This document shows positions 7,923 through 53,281 of a DNA stretch of 64,000 bases, one piece after another. The stretch comes from Vulcanimicrobiaceae bacterium. GTDB lineage: Bacteria; Vulcanimicrobiota; Vulcanimicrobiia; Vulcanimicrobiales; Vulcanimicrobiaceae. The stretch spans positions 32,111-96,110 of the forward strand of contig DASXEW010000002.1 in the NCBI GenBank assembly GCA_036489885.1. Direction: 5' to 3'. Position 1 is the stretch's first letter. The number at the start of each line of letters is the position of its first letter. A model generated the notes under the pieces. It ran no database searches. It saw only the letters and a program-made list of their open reading frames with translations, and was not told the origin of the DNA. Made by a program: the position numbers and the translations under genes.

Positions 7923-8300
7923 CTATTGGAAGAGAATAGTGGCGGTCGCCCCTCCGGCGCTTGACCTAATCCTGACGGCGCAGCCTGCGGGGCTGCCCGT
8001 GCGGGTAAAAGTGAACGGTCCACTCGAGGTGACCGGGTTGCCCGGAAGCGGCCGCGAGTCGCCGGTGAGGGTCACGGTTCCCGTGCACAGCATCCCCGGC
8101 GTCGCGATGAAATAGGTCCCGGCCGGGGCATGGTCTTGCGTGGCGGTTGCCGACTGTGAGGTCGCGCCGGCAAAGCTAATCCCGTACGTGCTCTTTCCCT
8201 GGACGAGCACCGGCCCAACGGCGGCAGGCGCAGCCGTTGCACTCGGCGTCGCGACTGGGAGCGCAAGAATCAGGGCGGCTAACGTTGTGGTGGCCAACAT
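7923..8300 (-). CDS. small secreted hypothetical protein
   Basis: The ATG at 8300 gives 125 aa with a signal-peptide-like N-terminus (MLATTTLAALILALPVATPSATAAP) and two Cys. The longer track ORF (to 8567) would overlap the SDR gene. Confidence 0.5.
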   Translation of the reverse strand: MLATTTLAALILALPVATPSATAAPAAVGPVLVQGKSTYGISFAGATSQSATATQDHAPAGTYFIATPGMLCTGTVTLTGDSRPLPGNPVTSSGPFTFTRTGSPAGCAVRIRSSAGGATATILFQ

Positions 8301-8332
8301 TGCGCCGCGTTTATACCCCGGTTGCCGGCAGC

Positions 8333-9070
8333 TTAGGCCGGCGCGAATCCCGTCGTGCGGCCGCCGTCGATCGCGAGAACGATCCCAGTAATGTACGATG
8401 CATCGTCGCTCGCCAAGAACAAGGTAGCCGCTGCGACTTCCTCGGGACGCCCGGCGCGTTGCAGCGGCGTTCCCTCGAGCGCGAGATGCCGGACCCGTTC
8501 GGGGATCGCAGCCGTCATCGGCGTTTCGATATAGCCCGGTGCCAGCGCGTTGACGCGCACGTTCCATTTTCCGTACTCGAGCGCAAGCGTTCGCGTCAAG
8601 CTCACGACGCCACCCTTGCTTGCCGCATAGTTCGATTGGCCGATGTTGCCAAGATACGAACGGGACGACGTCAGGATGATGCTGCCGCCACCGCCGGCGC
8701 GCATTTCAACCGCAGCCGCACGCGCCGTCAGAAACGTTCCGGTCAGATTCACGCGCAAGACTTCTTCCCACGCGTCGAGCTCGAGTTTCGACGCCATCGC
8801 GTCTTTCGTGATGCCCGCGAAGTGCGCGAGCACGTCGACCCGGCCGTGTTCGTCCTTCGTACGCCCGAAGAGCTCCGCAACGCTCGCTTGGTCGGCGACG
8901 TCGACGTCGAGCGCAAGCACTGCGTCCCCCAAGACCGTTCGCACGCGGTCGAGATCCAGATCCGCCGCCACGACGCGCGCGCCTTCTTCCGCGAATCGCA
9001 GCGCAGTTGCGCGGCCAATGCCGCTCGCCGCACCGGTGACGATCGCGACCTTTCCCTCGAGCCTGTTCAC
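8333..9070 (-). CDS. SDR-family oxidoreductase (FabG-like)
   Basis: TGAASGIGRA glycine loop, YAASKGG catalytic motif, 245 aa. Confidence 0.85.
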   Translation of the reverse strand: MNRLEGKVAIVTGAASGIGRATALRFAEEGARVVAADLDLDRVRTVLGDAVLALDVDVADQASVAELFGRTKDEHGRVDVLAHFAGITKDAMASKLELDAWEEVLRVNLTGTFLTARAAAVEMRAGGGGSIILTSSRSYLGNIGQSNYAASKGGVVSLTRTLALEYGKWNVRVNALAPGYIETPMTAAIPERVRHLALEGTPLQRAGRPEEVAAATLFLASDDASYITGIVLAIDGGRTTGFAPA

Positions 9071-11141: not shown

Positions 11142-11245
11142 ACGCGCTCGCGGCTTTCGGCCGCTGGCTCGCAACTAACGCGCACGTTCGTCTCACGTTT
11201 CTTTATGAAACGGGCGAGCGTACGCGTATACTCCACGGATTCGAG

Positions 11246-11881
11246 ATGACAGTCTGGCTGTCGATCGTTACGATCGCAGCCAGCACGCTCATCGGCGTGA
11301 TCGGCGTCTGGCTGCTCGGCACGCGTTGGCGAATCGTTCGGCAAATTATCACGGCATACGTGCAGTTCTTCCGCAACACGCCGCCGCTGGTTCAGCTCTA
11401 TTTCTTCTTTTTCGCGCTCAGCCCGCTGCTCTCGACGCACTCGGCCGATGGTCTGCGGCATCCGCTTCTCAACAACGTCTTCTGGGCGTCGCTCTCGCTC
11501 TCGCTTTTTGCCGGGGCATTCAATGTCGAGATCTTCCGTTCAGGAATCGAAGCGATTCCGCGCACGACGCTCGAGGCCGCCGAGTCCCTTGGATTCTCAC
11601 GCCTGCAAAGCTTCGTTCGCATCATGTTTCCGCTCGCGTTCCGGATCGGATTGCCGGCGTTCACGAACAACATCGTCAATCTCGTAAAGACGACGTCGCT
11701 TGCCTACGCGATTGCGGTCCCGGAGCTCCTTTACGCTTCGAGCCAAATATGGTCCGACGAGCTCAACGTCCCCGAGATGATGGTCTTTATTCTGATCGCG
11801 TATATTATTCTCGTCGCGATCGTTGTCTGGGCAATGGAGCTGATCGAGAAACGTTTACGCATTCCGGGTTACGGCCTGTGA
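11246..11881 (+). CDS. amino-acid ABC transporter permease (HisM/HisQ family)
   Basis: FRNTPPLVQL and the EAAESLGFSRLQSFVRIMFPLA EAA-loop. Confidence 0.85.
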   Translation: MTVWLSIVTIAASTLIGVIGVWLLGTRWRIVRQIITAYVQFFRNTPPLVQLYFFFFALSPLLSTHSADGLRHPLLNNVFWASLSLSLFAGAFNVEIFRSGIEAIPRTTLEAAESLGFSRLQSFVRIMFPLAFRIGLPAFTNNIVNLVKTTSLAYAIAVPELLYASSQIWSDELNVPEMMVFILIAYIILVAIVVWAMELIEKRLRIPGYGL

Positions 11882-12645
11882 TCACGAAACGCGTGCTCTT
11901 CTTTTCCATTCTGTTTTTTGCGGGATCCGTCGCGTTCGCGCAGGCGCAAACCGCGGCTGGGGAACCCGGGGTACTCGCGACGCTAGCAAAGTGGACGCCG
12001 CTACTCTTTCACGGATTTCTCTTCAATATCGCGATCAGCGTCTTTTCGATGGCGCTCGGATCGCTGTTCGGCGTCGTGCTCGGAATCTTCTTGATCTCAC
12101 GGCGCGTCCAGGTTGAGCGTCCCGCGTACTGGTTCATGCAGATCTTTCGCAACGCACCTTGGCTCGTTTTGATGTTCTTCGTGATGTACCTGACGCCGTT
12201 CCAATTTCATACGCCGTTCGGTACCATACCGTTTCCGGATTGGATCAAAGCCACGGTCGGTCTCGCACTGCCCGTCATGGCGAACGTTTCCGAGATCTTT
12301 CGTGGCGGCGTTGTTTCGCTACCCTATACACAGTGGGAGGCTGCGCAGTCGCTCGGTTTTGATTATCTGCAGACACTTAGGCTGATCATCGTGCCGCAGG
12401 CGGTCAAACGCATGCTTCCGCCATGGATGAACCTCTACGCAATTCTTACGCAATCGACGACGCTTGCATCGATCCTAGGCGTCACCGAGGTCCTGACCCT
12501 GACGCGGAACGTGCTTGGCGCCGAAGGCCGAACCGAGCTGCTGATGCCGTTTTACGGCTACGTCCTCGTATGGTTCTTCCTCTACTGCTATCCCATCGCC
12601 GTCTATACCAAGCGGCTCGAGCGCCGTTTCTCGGTGGCCTCGTGA
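11878..12645 (+). CDS. amino-acid ABC transporter permease (second subunit)
   Basis: The GTG at 11878 overlaps the upstream stop (GTGA). FRNAPWLVLMF and the EAAQSLGFDYLQTLRLIIVPQA EAA-loop. Confidence 0.8.
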   Translation: MITKRVLFFSILFFAGSVAFAQAQTAAGEPGVLATLAKWTPLLFHGFLFNIAISVFSMALGSLFGVVLGIFLISRRVQVERPAYWFMQIFRNAPWLVLMFFVMYLTPFQFHTPFGTIPFPDWIKATVGLALPVMANVSEIFRGGVVSLPYTQWEAAQSLGFDYLQTLRLIIVPQAVKRMLPPWMNLYAILTQSTTLASILGVTEVLTLTRNVLGAEGRTELLMPFYGYVLVWFFLYCYPIAVYTKRLERRFSVAS

Positions 12646-17038: not shown

Positions 17039-17110
17039 TGACTCGGGTAGGATTTGAACCTACGACCTAGGGCTTATGAGTCCCCCGCTCTACCCCTGAG
17101 CTACCGAGCC
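17039..17110 (-). tRNA. tRNA-Met (anticodon CAT; elongator or Ile2-type, not initiator)
   Basis: Cloverleaf folded by hand: acceptor GGCTCGG/CCGAGTC, anticodon loop CTCATAA, T-loop TTCAAAT. G1-C72 is paired. CCA is not encoded. Confidence 0.85.
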
Positions 17111-17152
17111 ACTAGGTTTCTTTTTTACGTGACATTATGTTGTTCTGCAAAT

Positions 17153-17226
17153 CGCGGTCGGAGGGACTCGAACCCCCAACCTACAAGTTCGTAGCCTGTT
17201 GCTCTATCCAATTGAGCTACGACCGC
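17153..17226 (-). tRNA. tRNA-Arg (anticodon ACG)
   Basis: Acceptor GCGGTCG/CGACCGC, D-arm GCTC..GAGC, anticodon loop CTACGAA, T-loop TTCGAGT. Confidence 0.9.
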
Positions 17227-17266
17227 GCGTTGTAGTTTTTTTTTATTTTCTCTTTTTGTAGTGCAT

Positions 17267-17355
17267 CGGAGAGAGAGGGATTCGAACCCTCGATACGGTG
17301 TTATCCGTATAACGGTTTAGCAAACCGCCGCCTTCAGCCACTCGGCCACCTCTCC
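17267..17355 (-). tRNA. tRNA-Ser (anticodon GCT)
   Basis: Acceptor GGAGAGG/TCTCTCC, anticodon loop TTGCTAA, long variable arm, T-loop TTCGAAT. Confidence 0.9.
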
Positions 17356-38051: not shown

Positions 38052-39125
38052 TTGCAGAAGCATCGCCGCATGCGACGACCGTATCCGACCACGATTGCCG
38101 GTAGCCTCCCCAAGCCGTCCTGGCTCGCCGAAACCGAACGGCTTTGGCCGGCTTGGCGCCTCGAGGGTGACGAGCTGGAGCCGGCGATCCGCGACGCCAC
38201 GCGTATCGCGATTTTCGAGCAAGCCCGTGCGGGAATCGATCTCGTCACGGATGGCGAGCAATCGCGTCAGCATTTCGTGCATGGCTTTCTTGCGGGCGTC
38301 GCGGGCGTTGATTTCACGAAGAAAGTGAAGCGCGGCATTCGCGCCGACCGGTACGAAGCCGAATGCCCGAGCATCACCGGCCCGGTGAGCCGCCGCGTCC
38401 CGATTTTCGTCGACGACGTGCGTTTTGCAAAATCGCTCGGCCAAAGTGTGAAAATTACGATTCCCGGCCCAATGACGATCGTCGATACGCTCTACGACGC
38501 GCACTATGCGGATCGAAAGACAGCGGCGCTCGCGTTCGCGAAGGTCATCCGCCAAGAAGCCGAAGAGCTGATCGCGGCCGGCGTCGACGCAGTTCAGCTC
38601 GATGAGCCCGCCTTCAACGTTTATTTCGAGGAAGTCGAGGACTGGGGCATCGCCGCGCTCGAGGCCGCATTCGGCGGCTTGAGCGTGATCAAAGCCGTTC
38701 ATATTTGTTACGGTTATGGCATCGAAGCCAACAACAATTGGAAAAAATCGCTCGGCACCGAGTGGGATCAGTACGCGCAGCTCTTCCCCTTCCTCTCGCA
38801 AAGCTGCGTCGATCAGGTCAGTATCGAGCTCGCCGGCTCACGCGTTCCACCCGAAGTCCTCTCGCTCTTACGAAACAAGGATGCCGCGATCGGCGTCATC
38901 GACGTCGCGAGCGATCGCGTTGAAACCGCGCAAGATGTGCTCGCCACGATTCGCCTCGCGGAAAAATATCTGCCCATGGAACGCATCTGGTGTTCGACCA
39001 ACTGCGGGATGGCACCGATGCGCCGCGACATTGCATACGCGAAACTGCAAGCCCTCGGCACCGGCGCCGAGTTGGCGCGAGATCACGCGATGCTTGCTAC
39101 GATGAAACGTTCCAGTCCGGCGTAA
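38052..39125 (+). CDS. cobalamin-independent methionine-synthase-like protein (MetE C-terminal-domain family, COG0620)
   Basis: TTIAGSLPKPSWL, DGEQSRQHF and HICYGY motifs. The start is either 38052 or the ATG at 38070. Confidence 0.75.
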   Translation: MQKHRRMRRPYPTTIAGSLPKPSWLAETERLWPAWRLEGDELEPAIRDATRIAIFEQARAGIDLVTDGEQSRQHFVHGFLAGVAGVDFTKKVKRGIRADRYEAECPSITGPVSRRVPIFVDDVRFAKSLGQSVKITIPGPMTIVDTLYDAHYADRKTAALAFAKVIRQEAEELIAAGVDAVQLDEPAFNVYFEEVEDWGIAALEAAFGGLSVIKAVHICYGYGIEANNNWKKSLGTEWDQYAQLFPFLSQSCVDQVSIELAGSRVPPEVLSLLRNKDAAIGVIDVASDRVETAQDVLATIRLAEKYLPMERIWCSTNCGMAPMRRDIAYAKLQALGTGAELARDHAMLATMKRSSPA

Positions 39126-39943: not shown

Positions 39944-41022
39944 GCGACCGCGGAGCCCGCCAAGAGCCTCGCTTTTTCGTCCTTTTGCAGTTCGCCGACG
40001 AGACGGTCCATGTCGCCGTCGAGAATTCCGCGGATGTTCCCGAAATTCTGGTTGATGCGATGATCGGTGATGCGATCTTGCGGGAAGTTGTAGGTTCGAA
40101 TCTTCTCGCTGCGATCGCCGGTACCGACTTGCGAACGCCGCAGATTGCCGACCGCATCTTGGGCTTCACGCTGCTTTCGGTCGTACAAAACCGCGCGCAG
40201 CATCTGCATGGCGCGATCCTTGTTTTGCAGCTGCGAGCGCTCCTCGCTGCACGCGACGATCGTTCCGGTCGGGACGTGCGTAATCCGTATGGCAGACTCG
40301 GTCTTGTTGACGTGCTGTCCGCCGGCGCCGCTCGCCTTGAACGTATCGATCTGCAGGTCGCTCGGGCGGATCTCGACCTCGACTTCTTCGACTTCCGGCA
40401 GGACGGCGACCGTCGCGGTGCTGGTGTGAACGCGACCTTGCGCCTCCGTCACGGGGACGCGTTGCACGCGATGCACACCGCTTTCATATTTCAAATAACG
40501 ATATGGCTCGCCGCCTTTGACCGAAACGACGACTTCCTTGTAACCACCGGCTTCGTTCTCACTCGCCGAGACAATCTCGGCACGCATGCCGTGATCTTCG
40601 GCGTAGCGCAAATACATCCGCAGCAAATCCGCAGCGAAAATGCCGGCTTCGTCGCCGCCTGCTCCGGCTCGAATCTCGATGAAGACGTCTTTGTCGTCGT
40701 TCGGATCGGTCGGGATGAGCATCTCTTGCAGACGTTCCTCGAGCTCTTTGCGCCGCTCGCGCAGTACTTGCGCTTCTTCTTCGGCCAGCGCGTGCATCTC
40801 CGGATCGCTCCGATCGGCAAGTAGCGCATCGTTGGCCGCGACGTCGGCGAGGAGACGCGTGTAGGAGCGATACGTTTCGACGGGCTCGACGAGCTTCGCA
40901 CGCTCGCGCGCCAACGTCATATAGCGCTCCTGATCGAACGGGCGGCTGGTATCTGCCAGCGCCGCCTCGATCTCATCGAAGCGTTTGGACATCTGTTCGA
41001 GACGGTCGTAGATAGAGCTCAT
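39940..41022 (-). CDS. prfA: peptide chain release factor 1
   Basis: PVT tripeptide (RVPVTEAQGR), GGQ motif (SGAGGQHVNK), 360 aa. Confidence 0.97.
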   Translation of the reverse strand: MSSIYDRLEQMSKRFDEIEAALADTSRPFDQERYMTLARERAKLVEPVETYRSYTRLLADVAANDALLADRSDPEMHALAEEEAQVLRERRKELEERLQEMLIPTDPNDDKDVFIEIRAGAGGDEAGIFAADLLRMYLRYAEDHGMRAEIVSASENEAGGYKEVVVSVKGGEPYRYLKYESGVHRVQRVPVTEAQGRVHTSTATVAVLPEVEEVEVEIRPSDLQIDTFKASGAGGQHVNKTESAIRITHVPTGTIVACSEERSQLQNKDRAMQMLRAVLYDRKQREAQDAVGNLRRSQVGTGDRSEKIRTYNFPQDRITDHRINQNFGNIRGILDGDMDRLVGELQKDEKARLLAGSAVA

Positions 41023-42329
41023 GCGTTAGGTTGCGGTTGCCACCGCAGGATCAGAGCGTTGGCGAGGAAATCGGCCAGCTCGTCACGTGTAATCACATCG
41101 ATACGTAAAACGGTTCCGAGGACCACCTCGTAAAGAACCTCTGGAATCTTCTCCATCTGCGCGAAGACGCCGCCTCGCAATATCCGGTCGACGCGATCCG
41201 GAGCTCGACCGCTGCCCTCCAAACGCGCCCGAAACTCGCGCGCGCCAACCGCGGGACCATTCGGAAACGCTTGCCCGGCGAGGGCGGACTCGAACGACCG
41301 AAACGACCGCGCGTTGTTACCGTATGCTATGATTCCGCAGGCACGCGACAAGACGCGATCGTCGAGCGCATCGGTGACGATCCATGCGCCATCTTCAAGC
41401 GCCGGGATACGATCGCTGTCCTCAAATACACCCGCAAAACGGTCGGCGAATCGCTCGCGACCCGCTTCTTCCCACACGCCTAGATTTTCGTTTGCCACCA
41501 CCGAAACTGCGCTCGCACCGTCAGGAACGTATGCGAAACACCCGTGCGCGTGCTCGAGCGCATCGGCGAGACTTCCGTTCGTAATCGCAGCGCCGCGCCA
41601 AACGTACGCCGACCATTCTGGTTCTTGGAAGATCGGTGGATATGACTCATCCAAAGGCACCCAAACGCCTTGATGTTCGCTCGCGTGGCAAATCTCGAGG
41701 CGCTTCGCATCAGTGAGATACGGTATGTCGTACTCGCTGTGCGCGTAGGACCGCATCTTCGCGCGCATAACATCAGCGCCGCCGAACGAACTAAAATGCC
41801 ACCCTCCGTCGACGAACTCGAGCTCGCTTTCGGGCCGCTTGCGCACCTGGCTCAAACTACCATATCGCGCTAAGGAACCCATGAGAAGGGCGCGTGTCCC
41901 AACCCACGGTTCGACTGCAACGCGGTTGATGTAACCGTGCGAGCGGCGCTGGCGATGACCGAGCAGAAATCGCTCACGCGGCCGCACCGTCACGTTTCGC
42001 GGATCGGGAACTTCGTCGCAATCGCTCAGCAGCACCAAGTCATCGCTGCTTGCACGCTGAGCGAAGCCGGAAGCAAGATAATCACGTTGCCCCCATTCGT
42101 TCTGCCACGGATCTGCAGAGGGCGGCCCCGGATAGACCAGGTGGACGATCTTTGAGCGCCATTCCGCGAAGCGTTCGCCGGACTCAGCGAACGCGAGTCG
42201 CTTCGGATCACCCCGAAACGTAAAGGGTGCTTCGCACAGCACAAACCAATCGACGACATTCTCGAGCAAGCGCAGCCGAATCTCGAGTAGATCAAGCTCT
42301 TCGGAGAACGTAAAACAGTCGAAAATCAC
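41019..42329 (-). CDS. GT17-like (GnT-III-type) glycosyltransferase domain fused to a ~190-aa uncharacterised C-terminal region
   Basis: The N-terminus MIFDCFTFSEELDLLEIRLRLLENVVDWFVLCEAPFTFRG matches the Glyco_transf_17 hallmark. The stop overlaps the prfA ATG (ATGA). Confidence 0.65.
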   Translation of the reverse strand: MIFDCFTFSEELDLLEIRLRLLENVVDWFVLCEAPFTFRGDPKRLAFAESGERFAEWRSKIVHLVYPGPPSADPWQNEWGQRDYLASGFAQRASSDDLVLLSDCDEVPDPRNVTVRPRERFLLGHRQRRSHGYINRVAVEPWVGTRALLMGSLARYGSLSQVRKRPESELEFVDGGWHFSSFGGADVMRAKMRSYAHSEYDIPYLTDAKRLEICHASEHQGVWVPLDESYPPIFQEPEWSAYVWRGAAITNGSLADALEHAHGCFAYVPDGASAVSVVANENLGVWEEAGRERFADRFAGVFEDSDRIPALEDGAWIVTDALDDRVLSRACGIIAYGNNARSFRSFESALAGQAFPNGPAVGAREFRARLEGSGRAPDRVDRILRGGVFAQMEKIPEVLYEVVLGTVLRIDVITRDELADFLANALILRWQPQPNA

Positions 42330-43871: not shown

Positions 43872-44465
43872 ATGAAACTCCCCCTGCTCGCTCTTGCCGG
43901 CGTTCTTCTGATCTCGCTTCTCTCGCTCGCCGACGCAGGCGCGCAGCAACAGCAGCAGAGCGTTCCGCCTACTCCCGCGCCCGCCATCGAGACCCCGACC
44001 GAGGCGCCCTCGATCAATCCGACCGTTAGTCCCGCGCCTCGTGGACGGCGCGCCAGAGCAACGCCGCGTCCGTCACCATCGCCCGCGGCATCGCCGTCTG
44101 AAACGCCGGCGCCACCTCAGTTCACCAGCCTCGATGGGACCTGGGAAATCGAGCTGCAGACCCGCGCGTCGACCTACTACTCGCACCTCACGCTCCGCCA
44201 AAGCGGTTCGCAAGGTGCGGATGTCTCGGGAATTTGGGATCAGGGGGGCAACCCGGACAAAAAGCTGCCGCTCACCGGGACATTCGATGGGCGCCTCTTC
44301 AAATTTACGGCGTCGTTCAAGGCGAGCCAGTACACGTTCACCGGCTACGTCGAAAACTACAGCGACATCGTCGGAATGGTGAGCGACGGGAAGAACGACT
44401 TGCCGTTCACGGCGCAACATCGCAAGAAAGAGAAGTTCTTCAACAACATCACGCCCGGTCTCTAG
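43872..44465 (+). CDS. secreted hypothetical protein
   Basis: Signal peptide MKLPLLALAGVLLISLLSLADA, a Gln/Pro-rich linker, then a ~110-aa globular part. It ends 4 nt before metY. Confidence 0.55.
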   Translation: MKLPLLALAGVLLISLLSLADAGAQQQQQSVPPTPAPAIETPTEAPSINPTVSPAPRGRRARATPRPSPSPAASPSETPAPPQFTSLDGTWEIELQTRASTYYSHLTLRQSGSQGADVSGIWDQGGNPDKKLPLTGTFDGRLFKFTASFKASQYTFTGYVENYSDIVGMVSDGKNDLPFTAQHRKKEKFFNNITPGL

Positions 44466-44469
44466 GACG

Positions 44470-45774
44470 ATGCAAGACCACAACTTCGGCTTTCGAACAC
44501 GCGCACTGCACGCCGGAACACCACCCGATCCGGCAACCGGCGCTCGCGCTCTTCCTCTGTATATGAGCACGAGCTTCGTCTTCGATTCGACCGAGCACGC
44601 AGCCGAGCTGTTTGCGCTGCGTACGTACGGCAATATTTACTCGCGCATCGGCAATCCGACGGTTGCCGCATTCGAAGAGCGCATGGCGAGCCTCGAGGGG
44701 GGTCTCGGCGCGGTTGCGACCGCGAGTGGCCTCTCGGCACAACTATGCACCGTACTGGCGCTCGCACAAGCCGGCGATCACATCGTGGCTTCCGCGAATC
44801 TCTATGGCGGCACAGTCACTCAATTCACGGTAACCCTTAAGCGAATGGGCATCGAGGCGACGCTCGTTCCCGGTGGGGAGCCGGGACCGCTTGCAGCCGC
44901 GATTCGCCCGAATACGCGCCTGCTGTTCACGGAGACGATCGGCAATCCGGCCGGCAACATCGCGGATCTCGCCACGCTTTCGAGCGTCGCGCACGAGCAC
45001 GGCGTTCCGCTCGTGGTCGACAACACGTTTGCGTCTCCGTATCTCTGCCGTCCGATGGAGTGGGGCGCAGACATCGTCATCCATTCCGCAACGAAATTCA
45101 TTGGCGGACACGGTACGGCGCTTGGCGGCATCATCGTCGAGAGCGGAAAATTCAATTGGGCCGCCGGACGTCATCCGCTTCTTTCGGAGCCAAGTCCCGG
45201 TTATCACGACATGAATTTCGCCGAGACCTTTGGCGAATACGCGTTTCTGATGCGCCTGCGCGCCGAAGTGCTCCGTGACGTGGGCGCCGCAATGTCGCCG
45301 ATGAATGCGTGGCTGATGGTGCAAGGCCTCGAGACGCTTGCGTTTCGCATGCAAGGTCACTGCGCGAACGCTCTCGCGCTCGCGAAGTGGCTCAAAGGCC
45401 GCGACGAAGTCGCGTGGGTATCGTACGCGGGCATCGATGATTCCCAAGCCGACCGTGTTCGCAAATATCTCCCGCAGGGCGCCGGTTCGATCTTCACGTT
45501 CGGGCTGCGCGGCGAACGCGAAGCCGGCCGCGCGTTCATCGAAGCGCTCGAGCTTTGGAGCCATCTGGCTAATGTCGGCGACGCGAAGAGCCTCGTGATC
45601 CATCCGGCGACGACGACGCATCAGCAGCTGACCGACAAAGAGCTGCTTGCGTCCGGCGTTACTCCCGAGATGATCCGGCTTTCCGTCGGTCTCGAAGATC
45701 TCGAGGATCTCATTTGGGATATCGAAAACGGGTTGCGCGCAGCGCGTAGCGCCGGAACGGCAGCGGTCAAATGA
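44470..45774 (+). CDS. metY: O-acetylhomoserine sulfhydrylase (PLP-dependent, Cys/Met metabolism family)
   Basis: GFRTRALHAG, YSRIGNPT and SATKFIGGHG (PLP Lys) motifs, 434 aa. Confidence 0.9.
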   Translation: MQDHNFGFRTRALHAGTPPDPATGARALPLYMSTSFVFDSTEHAAELFALRTYGNIYSRIGNPTVAAFEERMASLEGGLGAVATASGLSAQLCTVLALAQAGDHIVASANLYGGTVTQFTVTLKRMGIEATLVPGGEPGPLAAAIRPNTRLLFTETIGNPAGNIADLATLSSVAHEHGVPLVVDNTFASPYLCRPMEWGADIVIHSATKFIGGHGTALGGIIVESGKFNWAAGRHPLLSEPSPGYHDMNFAETFGEYAFLMRLRAEVLRDVGAAMSPMNAWLMVQGLETLAFRMQGHCANALALAKWLKGRDEVAWVSYAGIDDSQADRVRKYLPQGAGSIFTFGLRGEREAGRAFIEALELWSHLANVGDAKSLVIHPATTTHQQLTDKELLASGVTPEMIRLSVGLEDLEDLIWDIENGLRAARSAGTAAVK

Positions 45775-46277
45775 TTCTGACGACGATTGCGCAGCGGCGC
45801 GCGCTCTTGGACCGTTCGACCAGCGTTGCGATGATCGGTGCCTCGCCGAACGCGACGCGGCCGAGCTATTTCGTTTTTTCCTACTTACGGACGCGGGGAC
45901 GGTACGACGTCGCGCCGATCAATCCAACGACTGATGCCATCGACGGCGTGAAGTCCTACCCTTCGCTCACTGCGTACGCGGCCGAGCGCGGTGTACCTGA
46001 CATCGTCGACGTCTTTCGCAGGCCGGATCAATTGATGCCGATCGTCGAGGAAGCCATTGCAATAGGCGCACGGGCAATCTGGTTTCAGTACGGCGTGATC
46101 AACGAAGATTCGATCAAACGCGCCGATGAGGCGGGTCTCGACGTCGTCGTCGATCGCTGCATCAAGGTCGAGTCGGCACGATTCGACGGCGGCCTGGCCA
46201 TCGGCGGCTTGAACACGCACTTGATCACCTCGCGACGGCGGCAGGTCACCTCATCGCCGGGCGGAGGATTGCGCTGA
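45771..46277 (+). CDS. CoA-binding domain protein (YccU/YneT-like)
   Basis: ATGA overlap with metY. SVAMIGASPNATRPSYFV Rossmann-like CoA_binding_2 pattern. Confidence 0.7.
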   Translation: MILTTIAQRRALLDRSTSVAMIGASPNATRPSYFVFSYLRTRGRYDVAPINPTTDAIDGVKSYPSLTAYAAERGVPDIVDVFRRPDQLMPIVEEAIAIGARAIWFQYGVINEDSIKRADEAGLDVVVDRCIKVESARFDGGLAIGGLNTHLITSRRRQVTSSPGGGLR

Positions 46278-46324: not shown

Positions 46325-47371
46325 ATGAGCGAAATTGCGCTGACCGAGCACGAGTTCAACCATCTCGCGCGCGACGTCTTCGCGCACCAGCTTCGCTACA
46401 ATGCACCCTACGCGGCGTTCGCCAACAGCCTCGGATTCGACGGGCAACATCTGCCGCTCGAATGGCACCAGATTCCGGCCGTGCCGACTACAGCGTTCAA
46501 AGACGCGACCCTCGCAACATTCGACGTCGCGGAGTCGCGGATCGTTTTCGAAACGAGCGGCACGACGGCGGTCGAGACCGGCCGTCACCATTTCGAGGAA
46601 AGCTCACTCGCGCTCTACGATGCGTCGCTACTTGCCGGATTCGATCACTTCATGCTCGATCGCGAGCGTGACACGCCCTTACGCTACCTGCTGCTGGTTC
46701 CGGATCGCAAGACGTCTTCGCTCGGATATATGATGCGGCACGTCGCAGAACAACGCGGCGACGCCAAGGGCGGAACGTTCGTCGACGCGAGCGGCGGAGA
46801 TTTAGACGTGGCTTCCTTCGTCGCCGCACTCGGGCAAGCGTTCGAAGATCACGTCGCCGTCTGCATCGCGGGAACGGCTTTCGCATTTGCCGCGCTGCTC
46901 GAGGGTCTCGACGGAAAGATACTTCCGACGCGCACGGGTTCGCGCATCATGGAAACCGGCGGGTTCAAGGGACGAACGCGCTCCCTGGAACGCGTCGACC
47001 TCTATGCGCAACTCGCACGCTGCTTCGGAATCGCGTCGGAACGCATCGTCGCCGAATACGGGATGACCGAGCTGACGAGCCAGTACTACGACGCACCGTG
47101 GTCGCGCAGCCAAGGCGAACGTGTCAAGATCGGACCGCAGTGGCTGCGCCCGTCAATCGTCGATGCGAACGGGAGTCCGGTCGCCGACGGCGAGATCGGA
47201 GTGTTACGCCATGTCGATCTCGCCAATCGCGGATCGGCCGTCGCGATTCAAACCGAAGACCTCGCGTTGCGCATCGGTGAGGGCGCGTTTGTCTTACTCG
47301 GTCGCGATCCGGAAGCGCATATGCGCGGTTGTTCGTTAGATGTCGAAGACCTACTCGCTCGACGCGGCTAG
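46325..47371 (+). CDS. LuxE-like acyl-protein synthetase (adenylate-forming)
   Basis: FETSGTT, METGGFKGRT and EYGMTELTSQYY motifs, as in the LuxE family. Conserved-position Cys near the C-terminus (RGCSLD). Confidence 0.7.
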   Translation: MSEIALTEHEFNHLARDVFAHQLRYNAPYAAFANSLGFDGQHLPLEWHQIPAVPTTAFKDATLATFDVAESRIVFETSGTTAVETGRHHFEESSLALYDASLLAGFDHFMLDRERDTPLRYLLLVPDRKTSSLGYMMRHVAEQRGDAKGGTFVDASGGDLDVASFVAALGQAFEDHVAVCIAGTAFAFAALLEGLDGKILPTRTGSRIMETGGFKGRTRSLERVDLYAQLARCFGIASERIVAEYGMTELTSQYYDAPWSRSQGERVKIGPQWLRPSIVDANGSPVADGEIGVLRHVDLANRGSAVAIQTEDLALRIGEGAFVLLGRDPEAHMRGCSLDVEDLLARRG

Positions 47372-48551
47372 CATCATCGGCGCCGCCGCGGATGCAGCGC
47401 AGCGCTGGAGCGATGCTGATTTTCCGCCGCGCGTCCGAGCGACCGAATCGATCGCCAAGCGCACCGGCTACACGATCCCAGTCGTCGACTACGCGCTCGA
47501 TCGCCTCTTCGGGCCGCTGAGAGCACCGGCGCTCGAACGCGCCATTGCACAGGAGCTCGGTTCGGTGGCTGCACTCGACCGGTTCGTCGAACGTGACGGC
47601 ATTCAGTCGCGGGCGTATCCCATCGGCAACGCCGTCATCATCTCGAGCGAAACGACGATCGGCGTCGCGATCGTTCCAGCGATCTTTGGGCTTTGTGCGA
47701 AGTGCACGGTGCTTGTGAAAGACCGCGAGGACGCCCTGATCGATGCGTTCTTCCAAACGCTCGCGCAAGAGCATCCGGAGCTCGCAAAGCGCGCCACCGC
47801 GCGAGCCTGGAAAGGCGGCGATCCTCTCGAAGATCGCGAGCTGCGCGTCGCCGACACCGTGGTCGCATTCGGGCGCGATGAATCGCTGGCGGAGATCCGG
47901 CGTGCATTGCGTCCGGGCGCGCGATTCGTCGGCTATGGCCACCGCGCCAGCATCGGCTACGTAAGCCGTGAGGCGCTGGCGAACGAGACGCTCGCGCGCG
48001 CAGCCGCCCAAGGTGCGGCTCGCGATCTCATCCTGTACGACGGCGAAGGCTGCATGTCGCTGCACGTGCTTTTCGTGGAGCGTGATGCCGCGATTATGCC
48101 GCATGCATTCGCCCAGATGCTGATTGACGCGGCGGCGGTCGCATCCGTTGAATTTCCGGCCCGGAAGCTCGATCCGCGGGTCGTGACGTACTGCACCGGC
48201 GCGAGTTTTCGCCAGGCGCTCGGGCGCGGCAGCGTGCTGCGTACCCCGTCCGCGGATACGACGCTAGTCTTAGATCCGCCGCATCACGAGCCGCCGCCGC
48301 TTCTGCCTCGCATCCTTCCGCTCTACTCGATCGACGGGCCTGATGAATGCGAAGAGTACGTGCGCAGCCACGGATTGCCGCTGGAAGCGTTTGCGCTCGC
48401 CGCGCCGAGCGAGACGCTCGCGGACCTCGGAGCACGGCTCGGTGCCGCACGCATCGCGCGTCTTGGTGAGATGCAATCGCCGGGACCGGAACTGCACCAC
48501 GGAGGCCGAGCGCGTATCGGCGATTTCATCCGATGGGTGGATGTCGCGTGA
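47340..48551 (+). CDS. LuxC-like acyl-CoA/acyl-protein reductase
   Basis: Aldehyde-dehydrogenase-like fold with VAFGRDESL and YDGEGCMS (catalytic-type Cys). It overlaps the LuxE-like gene by 32 nt. Confidence 0.65.
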   Translation: MSKTYSLDAASIIGAAADAAQRWSDADFPPRVRATESIAKRTGYTIPVVDYALDRLFGPLRAPALERAIAQELGSVAALDRFVERDGIQSRAYPIGNAVIISSETTIGVAIVPAIFGLCAKCTVLVKDREDALIDAFFQTLAQEHPELAKRATARAWKGGDPLEDRELRVADTVVAFGRDESLAEIRRALRPGARFVGYGHRASIGYVSREALANETLARAAAQGAARDLILYDGEGCMSLHVLFVERDAAIMPHAFAQMLIDAAAVASVEFPARKLDPRVVTYCTGASFRQALGRGSVLRTPSADTTLVLDPPHHEPPPLLPRILPLYSIDGPDECEEYVRSHGLPLEAFALAAPSETLADLGARLGAARIARLGEMQSPGPELHHGGRARIGDFIRWVDVA

Positions 48552-49795
48552 ACGATATTCCGGGCCCGCGCTCGCGTGAGCTTGCGGAGCGGCTGCGTGC
48601 GCACGAATCACGAGGAGTTACGTTTCTCGCCGATGATTTCCCGATTTTTTGGGAATCCGCAGACGGCGCGCTCGTCACCGACGTGGACGGCAATCAATTC
48701 ATCGACCTGACTTCCGCCTTCGGCGTCGCAACCGCGGGACACACGAATCGACGCGTCCATGAAGCGATCGTGGCGCAATCCGAAAAGCTCGTCCACGGTC
48801 TCGGCGACGTGCATCCCAATCGCATGCGCGTCGAGCTGCTCGAGAAACTGGCTACGCTCGCGCCCGGTGAGCTTTCCGTCAGCTACCTGTGCAGCAGCGG
48901 CTCGGAAGCGATCGACTTTGCGCTCAAGACCGCTTATCTGCGCAACAAGCGGCCCGGCATTCTCGCGTTCACGGGCGCCTACCACGGGCTGACGTCGAGT
49001 GCCCTCGCCGTTACGGGAATCGAGCGATTCCGCGAACCCTTTGCGCCTTTCATTCGCGGCGACGTTCGCTTTGGGCCGTTCCCGACGCCGCTGCACACGA
49101 TGGAGATGGAGTTTCGCGCCTACAAGATCGGTACGGTTATCGTCGAGCCGATCCAAGGACGCGCCGGCGTCATCGTGCCGCCTCGCGGCTGGCTTGCAGG
49201 CGTACGCGCCATGTGCGATCTCTACGGCGCCACGCTGATCTTCGACGAAATCTACACAGGTTTCGGCCGGACCGGGAAAATGTTTGCCTGCGAGTACGAG
49301 GACGTCGTCCCCGATCTGTTGTGCGTCGGCAAAGCAATCGCCAACGGCGTACCGCTGGCGGCGGTGATCGGAACGCGCAAAGCGATGGACGCGTGGGAAG
49401 CCTCGCGTGGCGAAGCGCTTCACACCTCGACATATCTCGGTAATCCCCTCGCCTGCGCCGCCGCGCTTGCGAACATCACAGACATCGAACAGGAAGGACT
49501 CGTCGAACGCGCCGCAACGCTCGGTGCAAAACTCGGGACGCGATTACGCGAGCTGTCGGGGCGTACGCCGCTCGTCTCGGCCGTACGCGGGCGTGGGATG
49601 CTGTGGGGACTTGCGCTTCCGAGTCCCGAGCTCACGTTTGCAATCACGAAGGCCGCACTCCGGCTTGGGACGATCGTGCTTCCGTCGGGCGTACGCGGCG
49701 ACGTCATCACGCTTGCGCCACCGGTGACAATCGATGAAGGACAGCTGATGCACGCGGTCGATCTTCTCGAACAGGCAATCTTGAAGAGCACGTAA
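48548..49795 (+). CDS. class-III (omega/GABA/acetylornithine-type) PLP aminotransferase
   Basis: The GTG at 48548 overlaps the LuxC-like stop (GTGA). SGSEAIDFALK, DEIYTGFGRTG and VGKAIANG (PLP Lys) motifs. Confidence 0.85.
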   Translation: MNDIPGPRSRELAERLRAHESRGVTFLADDFPIFWESADGALVTDVDGNQFIDLTSAFGVATAGHTNRRVHEAIVAQSEKLVHGLGDVHPNRMRVELLEKLATLAPGELSVSYLCSSGSEAIDFALKTAYLRNKRPGILAFTGAYHGLTSSALAVTGIERFREPFAPFIRGDVRFGPFPTPLHTMEMEFRAYKIGTVIVEPIQGRAGVIVPPRGWLAGVRAMCDLYGATLIFDEIYTGFGRTGKMFACEYEDVVPDLLCVGKAIANGVPLAAVIGTRKAMDAWEASRGEALHTSTYLGNPLACAAALANITDIEQEGLVERAATLGAKLGTRLRELSGRTPLVSAVRGRGMLWGLALPSPELTFAITKAALRLGTIVLPSGVRGDVITLAPPVTIDEGQLMHAVDLLEQAILKST

Positions 49796-49896
49796 CGTGA
49801 AATCAACCATCAGGAAAGACCCTCACATGTTGTTCCTAGGCCGGCGCGCCCATTACTACGCTTTCGAAATGGACATGGGCCGAGGGCCAATGGGGG

Positions 49897-49919
49897 CCCC
49901 GCGCGCGCAGCGCGCGGGG
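49897..49919 (+). other. perfect 10-bp GC hairpin (CCCCGCGCGC-GCA-GCGCGCGGGG)
   Basis: It lies in the 156-nt spacer after the aminotransferase gene. No U-tract follows, so terminator function is uncertain. Confidence 0.45.
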
Positions 49920-49951
49920 GCGCGGAGCCTGGGGCGGAGCGCCTTTAAAAC

Positions 49952-50980
49952 ATGATTCGCGTTGGTATCGTAGGATCAGGTTTCGGGGGAGTCGTTCACG
50001 CACCGGCCTTTCACGCACACGATGCTTTCGAGCTGGTCGCGATTGCGTCGCCGAACAACGCCGAAGCGGTTGCCAAGGAGCGCAAGATTCGCAGCGCCTT
50101 CGGCTCGCTCGAGGCGATGCTCGACGGCGTAGAACTCGACGCAGTTTCGATCTCCACGCCGCCTTTTGCGCACCGCGAGGCGGTCTTACTCGCGCTCTCC
50201 CGCGGCAAGCACGTACTCTGCGAAAAGCCGCTGGCGCGAACGGTCGCCGAAGCCGAAGAGATGGTTGCAGCTGCAAACAAGTCCGAAAAGGCCACCGGAA
50301 TCGGATTCGAGTTTCGGTTCGATCCGTCACGTCAGGCACTTAAAGAGCTCATCGCCAACAATCATCTGGGGCCGCTGCGCGAGATCGAGTTCACGCATCT
50401 CACCACGATGCTGCGCCGGGATGCCGACAAGAAACGCGGCTGGTGGTTCGAGTACTCCCGTGGCGGCGGGATCATTCAGGCTGTCGGCTCGCACATGATC
50501 GACAGCGTCACGTGGCTCGCCGGACGTCCGCCGCGTTCTTATACCGGCTTCTCTCGCACAGCCAACGTCACGCGCAAGGACAATCAAGGTGCGTTCACGA
50601 GCAACGTCGCGGACGGCATGTTCGTGCTACTCGAGTACGGCGACGGCCTCGTCGGCCGGATCGCGCTCGACGCCACCAACGTCGTCAATAGCTCGACACT
50701 CGCAGTTTACGGTGAAGATCGTACGGCCGCAGCCAGCGGCGACTCCTTGGCATGGTCGAAGCTCTTTACGGTCGACGCAAAAGAGACGTCGGAATACGAG
50801 CTAGCTTCATCGCCGTACGACCAGCTCAAAACCGCCCAGCCGAACGTGCCGCTCGTCCTCCGGATGCTTGACCAATTCGCCGCAAAGATCGAAGGCAAGC
50901 CAAACACCTTGCCGACATTCGAAGACGGCTTGCTCGTGCAGCGCGTTATGGCCGCAGTAGGGTACGAGGCTAGTAAATAG
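49952..50980 (+). CDS. Gfo/Idh/MocA-family NAD(P)-dependent oxidoreductase
   Basis: MIRVGIVGSGFGG Rossmann start and EKPLA motif, 342 aa. Confidence 0.85.
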   Translation: MIRVGIVGSGFGGVVHAPAFHAHDAFELVAIASPNNAEAVAKERKIRSAFGSLEAMLDGVELDAVSISTPPFAHREAVLLALSRGKHVLCEKPLARTVAEAEEMVAAANKSEKATGIGFEFRFDPSRQALKELIANNHLGPLREIEFTHLTTMLRRDADKKRGWWFEYSRGGGIIQAVGSHMIDSVTWLAGRPPRSYTGFSRTANVTRKDNQGAFTSNVADGMFVLLEYGDGLVGRIALDATNVVNSSTLAVYGEDRTAAASGDSLAWSKLFTVDAKETSEYELASSPYDQLKTAQPNVPLVLRMLDQFAAKIEGKPNTLPTFEDGLLVQRVMAAVGYEASK

Positions 50981-51992
50981 AGTCGAAGCCGCTTTGCGAA
51001 GCGTGCGACTCTTCGAGGATCGTCATCCAGGCGATATTGTAGCTGCGTGGATGCAGCAGCCGCGTCGGATCGCCGAGCGGAATCTTCTGCAGCATGTCGT
51101 CGATCGATTCGAGCACCGTCACTGAGGGCGTGAACCCGAGCCGCGAGGTCATCTTGGTGTTCGTCATGCGGTAGTCGCGAACGATCTTCGGAAGCCCCGT
51201 CTCTTGCAGCTCGACGCGATGGCTCGCAAGCTTCATTTCCAGCGAGCCTTTGACGAGCATCGCAAGCTCCCGGATCTGATAATTCTCTTGCATGACGTTG
51301 AATATTTCGGCGTGGACGTCGTCACGCTTCGCGAGAGAGCAAGCGATGTGCGCACGCGCGACGTCGGTGACATCGACCAGCGGACGCCACTGCCAACCGC
51401 CCCCGTGTAAGAACAGTTTTCCAAACACCGCCGCGTCTTTGACGAACGTGTTGACGACGAGATCGAAGCGCATGCGCGGGCTGAAGCCGTAAACGGTGCC
51501 TTGCCGCAAGATCACGGGCGTGAAGCTCGCATCCGCCGTCTCGAGCAGCTTCTCTTCAGCGTATTTCTTCGAAAGCGAATATGCACCGCGCGGTTTGACG
51601 TCGGCGGTCTCGTCATACGTGCCGGCCCCGATTCCATCGTAGATCGACGCGCTCGAACCGAAAATCAACCGCCCGACACCGGCACGCTTACAGGCCCGCG
51701 CAAGCTCTTCGGTAGCGACCGCGTTCATCTGCCAATTGGCTTCCGTGTTGTACTCCGCGGTCGGATCGTTCGAGAGACCAGCGAGGTGGCTGACGACGTC
51801 CACCCCCTCGAGCCAGCCGGGATCAAAGCGGCGAATATCGCCTGGAACGAACTCGACCTTCTCGAGTCCGGCCGGCATCTTGCTGCCGAAGAAAAACCGA
51901 TCGACGACGCGGACGTCGTCGCCGCGCGCAACAAGCTGACGGCAAAGCTCGAGACCGATATAGCCGGCGCCTCCGGTGACGAGTACTCTCAG
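50970..51992 (-). CDS. NAD-dependent epimerase/dehydratase (extended SDR), proposed CTG start
   Basis: (L/M)RVLVTGGAGYIG begins exactly at the CTG at 51992, which overlaps the cinA stop (CTGA) and has GAGG 7 nt upstream. The only canonical start (ATG at 52166) would add 58 Arg-rich residues out of frame over cinA. Confidence 0.75.
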   Translation of the reverse strand: MRVLVTGGAGYIGLELCRQLVARGDDVRVVDRFFFGSKMPAGLEKVEFVPGDIRRFDPGWLEGVDVVSHLAGLSNDPTAEYNTEANWQMNAVATEELARACKRAGVGRLIFGSSASIYDGIGAGTYDETADVKPRGAYSLSKKYAEEKLLETADASFTPVILRQGTVYGFSPRMRFDLVVNTFVKDAAVFGKLFLHGGGWQWRPLVDVTDVARAHIACSLAKRDDVHAEIFNVMQENYQIRELAMLVKGSLEMKLASHRVELQETGLPKIVRDYRMTNTKMTSRLGFTPSVTVLESIDDMLQKIPLGDPTRLLHPRSYNIAWMTILEESHASQSGFDSIY

Positions 51993-53281
51993 CGGCGAGC
52001 CTCGGACATGAACGGCGTAATCGGCACGCTCGCGTCGGCGCGTTCGAGATAACGCCAGATCGCGGAGAGACCGGCCATCGTCGCACGCGTTCGAATGTCG
52101 CCGCGGTCGCCGGGGAACGTGGCTCGATACGTGCGCGGCTCGCCATCGGCAATCAGTGCAAACCACACGAGACCAACCGGCTTATCTTCGGTCCCGCCGC
52201 CGGGCCCTGCGACACCCGTCGTCGCAATCGCGACGTCAGCCCCCAAACGGCGGCGCGCACCGCGAGCCATCGCGATCGCCGTCTCGACGCTTACGGCTCC
52301 GTGTTCACGCAAAATATCGGCAGGGACGTCGAGCATCGACCGCTTGACGTCGTTGTTGTACGCGACCACGCCGCCGCGGAACACATCGGATGCGCCGGGG
52401 ACGCGGACGAGCGCGTCCGAGATTGCGCCGCCGGTGCACGACTCCGCGGTCGCGATCGTCTGGCGCCGCCGGCGCAACGCGTCAATGATCTGACTTTCGA
52501 CCGTCTGGGCGTCGACGCCGTAGATACCGTAGCCGATTCGTTCACGGATCTCGCGTTCGATCGGCGCGATCATCGCTTTCGCGGCTTCGGCGGTTTCGGC
52601 TTTGGCCATGATCTTCACGTCGCAGCGTCCGCCGTGTGCGAGCACCGCGATTTTGGGATTTTCCGACGAACGAAACAGATCTTCGATGCGACGGTCGAGC
52701 TCTGACTCCGGGATCCCGATCGTGTGAATCGTCCGCGTTGTAATCGTTTGGCGCAACGCGAAGCGTTCGAGCAACCACGGGACAAGCTTGTCCATCATCA
52801 TCGCGCGCATCTCACGCGGTACTCCCGGCATGCCTGCGACGAACTTACCATCCTCACGCAATGCAATGAACCCCGGCGCAGTACCATGCGGGTTGTCGAG
52901 CACGACCCCGGGCGTCGGTAGCATCGCCTGACGCCGATTGTTATCGCTCATCGTGCGCCGCATCATCGCAAAGCGCTCCTCGATTGCGCGCAGCGATTCC
53001 TCATGCAGCTCAAGATGCGTTCCGGTTGCGGTCGCGACGGCTTCCTTCGTCAAATCGTCGACGGTTGGGCCGAGTCCGCCGGTCGTAATGACCCCATCGG
53101 CGCGATCGAGCGCTCCGCGCAACATTGCCGCCAAACGCTCGGGGTTGTCGCCGACGGAGTGCTTCGCATACACGTCGACGCCGATATCAGCCAGGGCGCT
53201 TGCCACGAACGCGGAGTTCGTATCGATCAAATGGCCGAGCAGCAGCTCCGTCCCGATGGTTACGATCTCTACCGATGCCAA
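51989..53281 (-). CDS. cinA: CinA-family protein (MoCF-binding domain plus PncC NMN deamidase domain)
   Basis: TTG at 53281 gives MASVEIVTIGTELLLG. The C-terminal domain contains ATAESCTGG. Confidence 0.85.
   Translation of the reverse strand: MASVEIVTIGTELLLGHLIDTNSAFVASALADIGVDVYAKHSVGDNPERLAAMLRGALDRADGVITTGGLGPTVDDLTKEAVATATGTHLELHEESLRAIEERFAMMRRTMSDNNRRQAMLPTPGVVLDNPHGTAPGFIALREDGKFVAGMPGVPREMRAMMMDKLVPWLLERFALRQTITTRTIHTIGIPESELDRRIEDLFRSSENPKIAVLAHGGRCDVKIMAKAETAEAAKAMIAPIEREIRERIGYGIYGVDAQTVESQIIDALRRRRQTIATAESCTGGAISDALVRVPGASDVFRGGVVAYNNDVKRSMLDVPADILREHGAVSVETAIAMARGARRRLGADVAIATTGVAGPGGGTEDKPVGLVWFALIADGEPRTYRATFPGDRGDIRTRATMAGLSAIWRYLERADASVPITPFMSEARR

Follow-up and report, generated by a model that had tools for sequence, protein, structure and literature searches.

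A LuxE-LuxC-aminotransferase module of Vulcanimicrobiota, probably an undescribed branch of 7-deazaguanine/queuosine biosynthesis

A stretch of 64,000 nucleotides from a Vulcanimicrobiaceae bacterium (phylum Vulcanimicrobiota, also named Eremiobacterota; contig DASXEW010000002.1), called the window here and numbered along its forward strand, carries three consecutive open reading frames, ORF1 to ORF3, which encode a LuxE-like adenylating enzyme, a LuxC-like thioester reductase and a class III aminotransferase (Table 1). A preliminary description of the locus had read the three as a module that takes a carboxylate through an aldehyde to an amine. Our best description of the module is a LuxCE-type acid reductase accompanied by its own atypical transaminase, and it probably constitutes an undescribed branch of 7-deazaguanine/queuosine biosynthesis. 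The coupling of the three genes noted earlier is borne out, with a 32-nt overlap of ORF1 and ORF2 (47340-47371) and a GTGA overlap of the ORF2 TGA stop with a GTG start of ORF3 at 48548. The ORF3 start is ambiguous, as an in-frame ATG at 48533 would give a 19-nt overlap instead.

Searches with hidden Markov models (HMMs) placed all three products above threshold in the families first proposed for them. The match of ORF1 to Pfam LuxE is weak and above the gathering score of 24.9 bits, and relatives score up to 55 bits. Its best sequence match in the PDB is LuxE (7xc6_E, E=7e-12), and it scores 34.2 bits against the NCBIfam LuxE equivalog NF052244, far under the cut-off of 550. ORF1 carries the motifs TSGTT (aa 77), YGMTE (aa 245) and RGCSLD. 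The cysteine of the last, Cys336 (nt 47330-47332), lies 12 residues from the C terminus and is invariant in 15 of 15 Eremiobacterota homologues and in 82 of 82 from outside the phylum. An AlphaFold model of the protein has a pLDDT of 80.9, with low values in the C-terminal tail, which fits a flexible segment bearing Cys336. The LuxE-like protein is thus predicted to adenylate an acid and to carry it as a thioester on this cysteine. A Candidatus Baltobacteraceae metagenome-assembled genome (MAG) encodes a protein with 100% identity to it.

ORF2 is well above the Pfam LuxC threshold of 21 bits, and its sole PDB sequence match is LuxC (7xc6_A), whose active-site cysteine aligns with Cys238 (nt 48051-48053) of the GEGCMS motif, invariant in 59 of 59 homologues. 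Against the NCBIfam fatty-acyl reductase LuxC model NF052251 it scores 28.6 bits, with a cut-off of 750. The LuxC-like protein is predicted to take the acyl group off Cys336 of its partner and to release an aldehyde using NAD(P)H. A Pfam scan found no carrier domain and no NAD_binding_4 reductase domain in the LuxE- and LuxC-like ORFs. In its action the pair resembles carboxylic acid reductase (CAR, A-PCP-R) without being a member of that family, for the carrier here is a cysteine and the reductase has an aldehyde dehydrogenase (ALDH) fold rather than an SDR-type one.

The nearest known counterpart is LuxC-LuxE of Photobacterium phosphoreum (7xc6), in which an ANL synthetase acylates itself on a cysteine near its C terminus and passes the acyl group to a cysteine in an ALDH fold. 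This system provides the best (ORF1) or only (ORF2) PDB sequence match, and both cysteines are conserved. The differences are considerable. The annotated neighborhood contains no luxA, luxB or luxD, in keeping with the early conclusion that bioluminescence is not involved, and the aldehyde would go to an aminotransferase rather than to a luciferase. ORF1 is only about 23% identical to true LuxE, compared with 37-45% to a LuxE-like family spread over several phyla. Of the positions conserved at 90% or more outside Eremiobacterota, LuxE-like proteins inside the phylum keep 51 of 56, whereas true LuxE of P. phosphoreum shares 23 of the 49 family-conserved positions that align. Family-specific residues of the putative pocket differ as well: His88, Ser131, Ser132, Arg207, Gln253, Arg275 and Asn301 are polar in the LuxE-like family and hydrophobic in true LuxE. 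The likely substrate is a polar heteroaromatic acid and not myristate.

The structural model points in a related direction. The closest folds to the LuxE-like model (TM ~0.66) are PaaK1/2, ClxA, a phenazine-pathway adenylating protein and 2-hydroxyisobutyryl-CoA ligase, all short ANL enzymes, most of them for aromatic or heteroaromatic acids, such as phenylacetate for PaaK and 3-amino-4-hydroxybenzoate for ClxA. PaaK-type enzymes differ in passing the acyl group to CoA or another acceptor and in having no RGCS cysteine tail, and the sequence profile of ORF1 is that of LuxE, not PaaK.

To place the pair in a wider context, we searched 1.84 billion representatives of clusters at 50% identity with a cut-off of E<=1e-30, which returned 622 representatives of the LuxE-like family. 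The best 150 of these are 35-78% identical to the query, with full-length matches mostly at 36-49%, and named members come from Verrucomicrobiota, Longimicrobiales, a Clostridia MAG and Myxococcales. We then surveyed 80 metagenome loci from other phyla, retrieved with a profile built on non-Eremiobacterota members and annotated by HMMs from the window families together with all-against-all clustering of neighbor proteins. In 28 of them at least 3 kb was available on both sides, and here neighbors were counted within 4 kb. LuxC is adjacent to LuxE in 26 of these 28 fully flanked loci, a class III aminotransferase is present in 16, QueE in 10 and QueG in 4. LuxE and LuxC are also found fused, among others in P0149, P0211, P0218, P0231 and P0247, and the fusion proteins include ones of 847, 785, 867, 811 and 739 aa. 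The pairing has an exception in Cybelea-type Eremiobacterota, where the LuxE gene stands apart. Two variants were also seen. In P0192 (759 aa), a zinc alcohol dehydrogenase is fused to the N terminus of the LuxE-like domain, an indication that some lineages reduce the aldehyde to an alcohol, either in place of amination or in addition to it. In L171, a major facilitator superfamily transporter gene (11217-12467) lies between the LuxE-like and LuxC-like genes, with QueD after, and its product could be an importer or exporter of a deazapurine intermediate.

The aminotransferase is atypical. ORF3 is a clear class III enzyme by its Aminotran_3 score, with the pyridoxal phosphate (PLP) lysine intact, as first described, at Lys267 and the pyridine-nitrogen aspartate at Asp238, and yet no NCBIfam aminotransferase model reaches its cut-off. 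Its best sequence matches are GabT, putrescine and acetylornithine aminotransferases (E ~1e-69 to 1e-55), with which it shares the fold and both of these residues. We numbered the active site after Escherichia coli GabT, using a reference sequence that reproduced the literature positions R141, E211, K268 and R398. R141 is replaced by an invariant leucine (Leu153), E211 by an invariant arginine (Arg210) and R398 by Thr393, a position held by Ser, Thr or Ala across the family. This leucine/arginine/non-arginine signature, which we call type A, is kept across 46 Eremiobacterota sequences and in orthologues linked to QueE, along with a conserved HG(M/L)GDVHP motif. ORF3 is thus without the Glu211-Arg398 switch and without both carboxylate-binding arginines of the 2-oxoglutarate-dependent omega-aminotransferases, which argues against substrates of the glutamate, aspartate, gamma-aminobutyrate or ornithine type. 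We predict that it turns an aldehyde into a primary amine.

Comparison across phyla indicates that this position has been filled more than once. In L084, an aminotransferase 45% identical to ORF3, with the same signature (L/R/S), precedes a LuxE::LuxC fusion with a 1-nt overlap. In a clade linked to QueG, the aminotransferase is of a different, ArgD-like lineage (D141/E211/R398). Both lineages found beside the LuxE-LuxC pair are without Arg141, and the independent filling of the position fits an aldehyde-to-amine step as part of the unit. Together with the LuxE::LuxC fusions, the recruitment of two lineages reinforces the carboxylate-aldehyde-amine logic first put forward, which is still the most economical reading. 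The type A enzyme is widespread at 50-55% identity in Planctomycetota, Gemmatimonadota and Melainabacteria, where it can stand alone, and a Longimicrobiales genome has the LuxE-LuxC pair alone, so parts of the module can be dispersed around the genome. ThyX (Thy1) adjoins a type A aminotransferase in Gemmatimonadota (L087, 6196-8350) and lies just downstream of the aminotransferase-LuxE::LuxC cluster in L084 (6757-12310), a proximity that may be coincidence.

The identity of the acid is suggested by the genes that accompany orthologous clusters in other phyla. A 215-aa radical-SAM neighbor is QueE (TIGR04349, 307.8 bits against a cut-off of 300), and operons in the order QueE, aminotransferase, LuxE, LuxC occur in 14 distinct survey loci, whose LuxE proteins are 43-87% identical to one another; L172 is a fifteenth, in which all four genes overlap. 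QueG (TIGR00276, 385 and 319 bits against 200) takes the same place in a separate clade (L115, L119, L120, L126 and L127) and is close by in L109, for six loci in total. QueD (TIGR03367, 91-108 bits against 89.25) is present in five loci, directly after LuxC in L086, L156 and L171 and within ~3 kb in L103 and L164, and QueA is upstream in one, the Verrucomicrobiota locus L086. QueC, QueF and Tgt were not detected in any fetched locus, either by phmmer searches with E. coli and Bacillus subtilis query sequences or in precomputed Pfam tables. A neighbor-joining tree places queuosine-linked arrangements to either side of the Eremiobacterota clade.

Two further kinds of insertion were seen in QueE-linked clusters. 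Some of them carry, between aminotransferase and LuxE, a conserved opposite-strand ORF of ~480-660 aa that matches no Pfam or NCBIfam model (L099, 5551-6990(-); L102, 5595-7157(-); L104, 5539-7020(-); L151, 4328-6322(-)). In others, a membrane methyltransferase of ~140 aa resembling ICMT/PEMT lies between the same two genes (L117, 6279-6704; L163, 6447-6929; L164, 6515-6943).

Queuosine is a nearly universal tRNA wobble modification, and to our knowledge its de novo pathway (FolE, QueD, QueE, QueC, QueF, Tgt, QueA and QueG/H) is regarded as settled. The pathway contains a single free carboxylic acid, 7-carboxy-7-deazaguanine (CDG), which QueE produces. Canonically, QueC converts CDG to preQ0 through an amide and then a nitrile, at the cost of 2 ATP and ammonia, and QueF reduces preQ0 to the base preQ1 with 2 NADPH; Tgt inserts this base into tRNA en route to queuosine. 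Conversion of the carboxyl group on C7 of the deazaguanine to an aldehyde and then to an aminomethyl group also yields preQ1. The presence of QueD, QueE, QueG and QueA beside the orthologous clusters points to CDG as the acid, and the combination of these neighbors with a lack of QueC and QueF in those loci is what non-orthologous displacement of the two enzymes would be expected to produce.

We therefore propose a route whose acid is inferred from gene neighborhoods of homologues in other phyla; the sequence itself shows the enzyme families, the invariant Cys336 and Cys238, the lysine for PLP, the coupled translation of the genes, and that LuxE and LuxC are syntenic or fused. The LuxE-like protein would adenylate CDG with ATP and transfer it to its own Cys336. 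The LuxC-like protein would accept the acyl group on Cys238 and reduce it with NAD(P)H to free 7-formyl-7-deazaguanine, and the aminotransferase would convert this aldehyde to the aminomethyl group of preQ1 (7-aminomethyl-7-deazaguanine). Such a route would cost one ATP, one NAD(P)H and one amino donor, where both the nicotinamide cofactor and the donor are presumed. It would share its start, its end and its genomic company of QueD, QueE, QueG and QueA with canonical QueC plus QueF. It would differ in its enzymes, which belong to families unrelated to the PP-loop ATPase QueC and the T-fold nitrile reductase QueF, and in proceeding by a thioester and an aldehyde rather than by an amide and a nitrile. 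Our reasons for extending this function to the window are that Eremiobacterota retain 51 of 56 family-conserved LuxE positions and that the aminotransferase of the window has the full type A signature. For the window, we lean slightly toward conversion of CDG to preQ1 by the trio in place of QueC and QueF, and we hold the same model with somewhat greater confidence for the QueE-linked clades. The broader proposition, that a QueC- and QueF-free route of this kind operates undescribed in Eremiobacterota and, at a minimum, in lineages of Verrucomicrobiota, Gemmatimonadota, Myxococcota and Clostridia, seems to us evenly balanced.

Within the host phylum, the module sits in a larger conserved arrangement (Table 1). 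A scan of one genome per GTDB species gave more than 580 relatives, the best 80 of which, nearly all Eremiobacterota, were examined over +/-8 kb per locus. The order (MetY)-CoA-binding-LuxE-LuxC-aminotransferase-Gfo is kept in most sufficiently long loci, often with overlapping genes, and such an arrangement is far from chance; the trio is conserved across the phylum. The flanking genes are likewise those originally named, MetY and a CoA-binding protein upstream and a Gfo/Idh/MocA oxidoreductase and an epimerase downstream. The CoA-binding protein is present in 73 loci and Gfo/Idh/MocA in 44. In the window, the CoA-binding gene has an ATGA overlap with MetY and is followed by a 47-nt gap before the LuxE-like gene, and its PDB relatives, PH1109 and TT1466, are both of unknown function. 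MetY is upstream in most loci, not all, and stays paired with the CoA-binding gene in rearranged Cybelea-type loci, and it appears to be a syntenic neighbor rather than a demonstrable pathway member. The Gfo/Idh/MocA protein reaches the cut-off of no NCBIfam model. In most other Eremiobacterota loci its gene adjoins or overlaps that of the aminotransferase, unlike in the window, where the two are separated by 156 nt. This gap holds a perfect hairpin that occurs once within the window, inside a larger imperfect inverted repeat (49842-49929); no T-run follows the hairpin, and we called no terminator there.

Table 1. Features at and around the module, in coordinates of the window
Feature	Position	Strand	Evidence or remark
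O-acetylhomoserine sulfhydrylase MetY	44470..45774	+	TIGR01326, 605 bits vs cut-off 495
Small CoA_binding_2 protein	45771..46277	+	PF13380, 123.6 bits
LuxE-like ANL adenylating enzyme, ORF1, 348 aa	46325..47371	+	PF04443, 31.8 bits
LuxC-like thioester reductase (ALDH superfamily), ORF2, 403 aa	47340..48551	+	PF05893, 133.8 bits
Atypical class III (fold type I) aminotransferase, type A, ORF3, 420 aa	48533..49795	+	PF00202, 317 bits
Perfect 10-bp G+C hairpin, CCCCGCGCGC-AGC-GCGCGCGGGG	49897..49919	+	Gap between aminotransferase and Gfo genes
Gfo/Idh/MocA NAD(P)-dependent oxidoreductase	49952..50980	+	PF01408, 101.5 bits; C-terminal domains too
SDR epimerase	50970-52166	Convergent with Gfo gene	Window annotation

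The Cybelea-like loci (L043, L045, L048, L050, L051, L059, L066, L069, L072, L074 and L077-L081) depart from this order. Their LuxE gene (~8001-9020) is convergent with CoA-binding-MetY, and LuxC, aminotransferase and Gfo are not within 8 kb; a search for LuxC homologues aimed at a Cybelea-type LuxC-aminotransferase-Gfo cluster gave no match named as Cybelea. Upstream, these loci have rpsD and proteins with a copper-amine-oxidase N domain.

The wider window carries the housekeeping genes prfA, prmC, CTP synthase, NadE, GlpX and CinA, and several other features. Upstream of MetY, at 43872-44465, lies a gene for a 197-aa protein with a signal-peptide-like N terminus, a Pro/Ser/Thr-rich linker and no family match; it is kept, at 28-86% identity, just upstream of MetY or of CoA-binding-LuxE in many Eremiobacterota loci. 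At 38052-39125, about 5 kb from MetY and adjoining CTP synthase and prmC/prfA, is a gene for a 357-aa protein like cobalamin-independent methionine synthase that has the Meth_synt_2 catalytic domain only. A 436-aa protein encoded on the minus strand at 41019-42329, overlapping prfA by 4 nt, matches glycosyltransferase family 17 (PF04724), which we take to be mainly eukaryotic. Three tandem tRNA genes lie at 17039-17355 (-).

Several observations weigh against the proposed preQ1 route. The CDG function reaches the Eremiobacterota clade through homology only, at 37-45% identity, and there is no queuosine gene within the window or within +/-8 kb in the 80 Eremiobacterota loci. The Eremiobacterota cluster includes coupled CoA-binding and Gfo/Idh/MocA genes and usually MetY, with no obvious place in queuosine synthesis; we considered roles for all three, and no consistent explanation emerged. 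Outside the phylum, about half of the informative loci show the LuxE-LuxC pair without a queuosine gene nearby, and other neighbors occur, such as an amidohydrolase in L083 and the alcohol dehydrogenase of P0192. A search for Rfam preQ1 riboswitches gave none at the gathering score in the window or in 22 loci that are queuosine-linked or related, and none of relevance appeared even at E<=5 in five QueE-linked loci, although riboswitch control is not universal among que genes. The sampling also calls for caution. Because the surveyed loci were ranked by their similarity to a single query, they form neither a random nor an independent sample. The data on QueC, QueF and Tgt cover +/-7-10 kb around each match, and the phmmer run detected QueD and QueA as partial positive controls and had no positive control for QueC or QueF.

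In an alternative reading, the Eremiobacterota clade would have diverged and, with the CoA-binding and Gfo proteins, would make a phylum-specific amine from another acid, probably a polar or aromatic one, by the same mechanism. The five genes from CoA-binding to Gfo form a conserved and often overlapping unit in the phylum. Beside the pair in other phyla, the CoA-binding gene was not detected in the survey loci and no Gfo orthologue was found, only a distant Gfo-family gene in L092 and L104. The lack of nearby queuosine genes and the modest identity to queuosine-linked clades agree with divergence as well. However, the LuxE positions and the type A signature of QueE-linked operons are retained, and because queuosine-linked clades flank that of Eremiobacterota in the tree, a switch of function would call for some special event. 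We regard such a divergence as unlikely, though as the likeliest of the alternatives.

A role in 7-deazapurine metabolism other than a bypass of QueC and QueF, whether synthesis of another 7-substituted deazaguanine or salvage or repair beside the canonical enzymes, would also fit the neighborhoods, which show a link to the queuosine pathway and not which step is involved, and the P0192 fusion suggests that some members proceed to an alcohol. Nevertheless, CDG is the only free carboxylate that the neighboring QueE makes, the association with QueG and QueA, which act at the tRNA level, points to queuosine itself, and none of these loci showed QueC or QueF, whose genes commonly cluster with those of QueD and QueE. 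We consider such a role quite improbable.

More doubtful still is a semialdehyde route from an amino acid or dicarboxylate, in the manner of ArgB/ArgC/ArgD or Ask/Asd/EctB and perhaps tied to MetY or the CoA-binding protein, which could lead from glutamate to ornithine, from aspartate to 2,4-diaminobutyrate or from malonate to beta-alanine. The position of MetY and the CoA-binding gene directly upstream in most Eremiobacterota loci would suit it, as would the identity of the top-scoring aminotransferase relatives, GabT, putrescine aminotransferase and ArgD. The enzyme itself does not, as both arginines for the substrate carboxylate and the Glu-Arg switch are lost. In addition, several loci do without MetY, the gene is not linked beyond the phylum, and the association of relatives with queuosine genes has no place in such a route.

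The alkylamines, amino-lipids and amino-acid-derived diamines suggested as products in the preliminary description fare poorly. A path from a fatty acid through a fatty aldehyde to a long-chain alkylamine or amino-lipid precursor draws on the action of true LuxE and LuxC on myristate and the match of both Pfam models, on the leucine in place of the distal carboxylate-binding arginine, as in amine transaminases with hydrophobic pockets, on the precedents of TabE/TabA and PigE/TamH, and on the many unidentified lipids of Vulcanimicrobium alpinus. Set against these are the NCBIfam equivalog scores (34 against 550 and 29 against 750 bits), the 23 of 49 shared positions and polar replacements relative to true LuxE, the lack of lipid or fatty-acid genes nearby, the clustering of relatives with QueE, QueD and QueG rather than with lipid genes, and aryl-acid ligases as the nearest folds, and we judge this path the least credible of those weighed here. 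Other candidates were rejected: a tRNA-independent C5 route from glutamate through glutamate-1-semialdehyde to 5-aminolevulinate, whose aminomutase is also without R398, does not fit an aminotransferase closer to GabT/YgjG than to HemL or a nearby NAD_binding_7 gene that is not in a hem cluster, and the que association explains more, while routes to proline, ornithine, 2,4-diaminobutyrate and beta-alanine are disfavored by the missing carboxylate-binding arginines.

The tambjamine and prodigiosin systems (TabE/TabA with TamH, and PigE) offer a parallel for the chemistry, leading from a thioester through an aldehyde to a primary amine with a class III aminotransferase. The tambjamine alkylamine has been described as the product of a LuxC-like acyl-ACP (acyl carrier protein) reductase and a transaminase, and ORF3 scores 263 bits against the NCBIfam PigE model, below the cut-off. 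These systems use fatty acyl-ACP or acyl-CoA, or a reductase domain of the nonribosomal peptide synthetase type fused to the transaminase, and are confined to secondary-metabolite clusters, whereas the module in the window is conserved, apparently housekeeping, and has a LuxE-type carrier cysteine.

As the preliminary description had supposed, we found no characterized pathway with a LuxE-LuxC-aminotransferase architecture in the literature. Nor did we find an account linking LuxE/LuxC-type enzymes to queuosine or one of 7-formyl-7-deazaguanine, in full-text searches of openly accessible papers. LuxC and LuxE homologues have been mentioned in flagellin glycosylation islands, where a lipid role was guessed, and the supplements on V. 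alpinus contain no que or Lux terms. Viral contigs, scanned with the LuxE profile in view of phage 7-deazaguanine clusters, gave no relative.

If the proposed preQ1 route is correct, the scoring of queuosine capacity in genomes and metagenomes would change, and organisms without queC and queF would no longer be called salvagers. Hundreds of proteins of the "LuxE/LuxC/aspartate aminotransferase family," which at present carry annotations as acyl-CoA reductase or hypothetical, would gain a function, and LuxCE-type reductases would be shown to act on a polar heteroaromatic acid. The module would also represent a compact three-enzyme cascade from acid to amine, with an unusual transaminase active site, that may be of use in biocatalysis.

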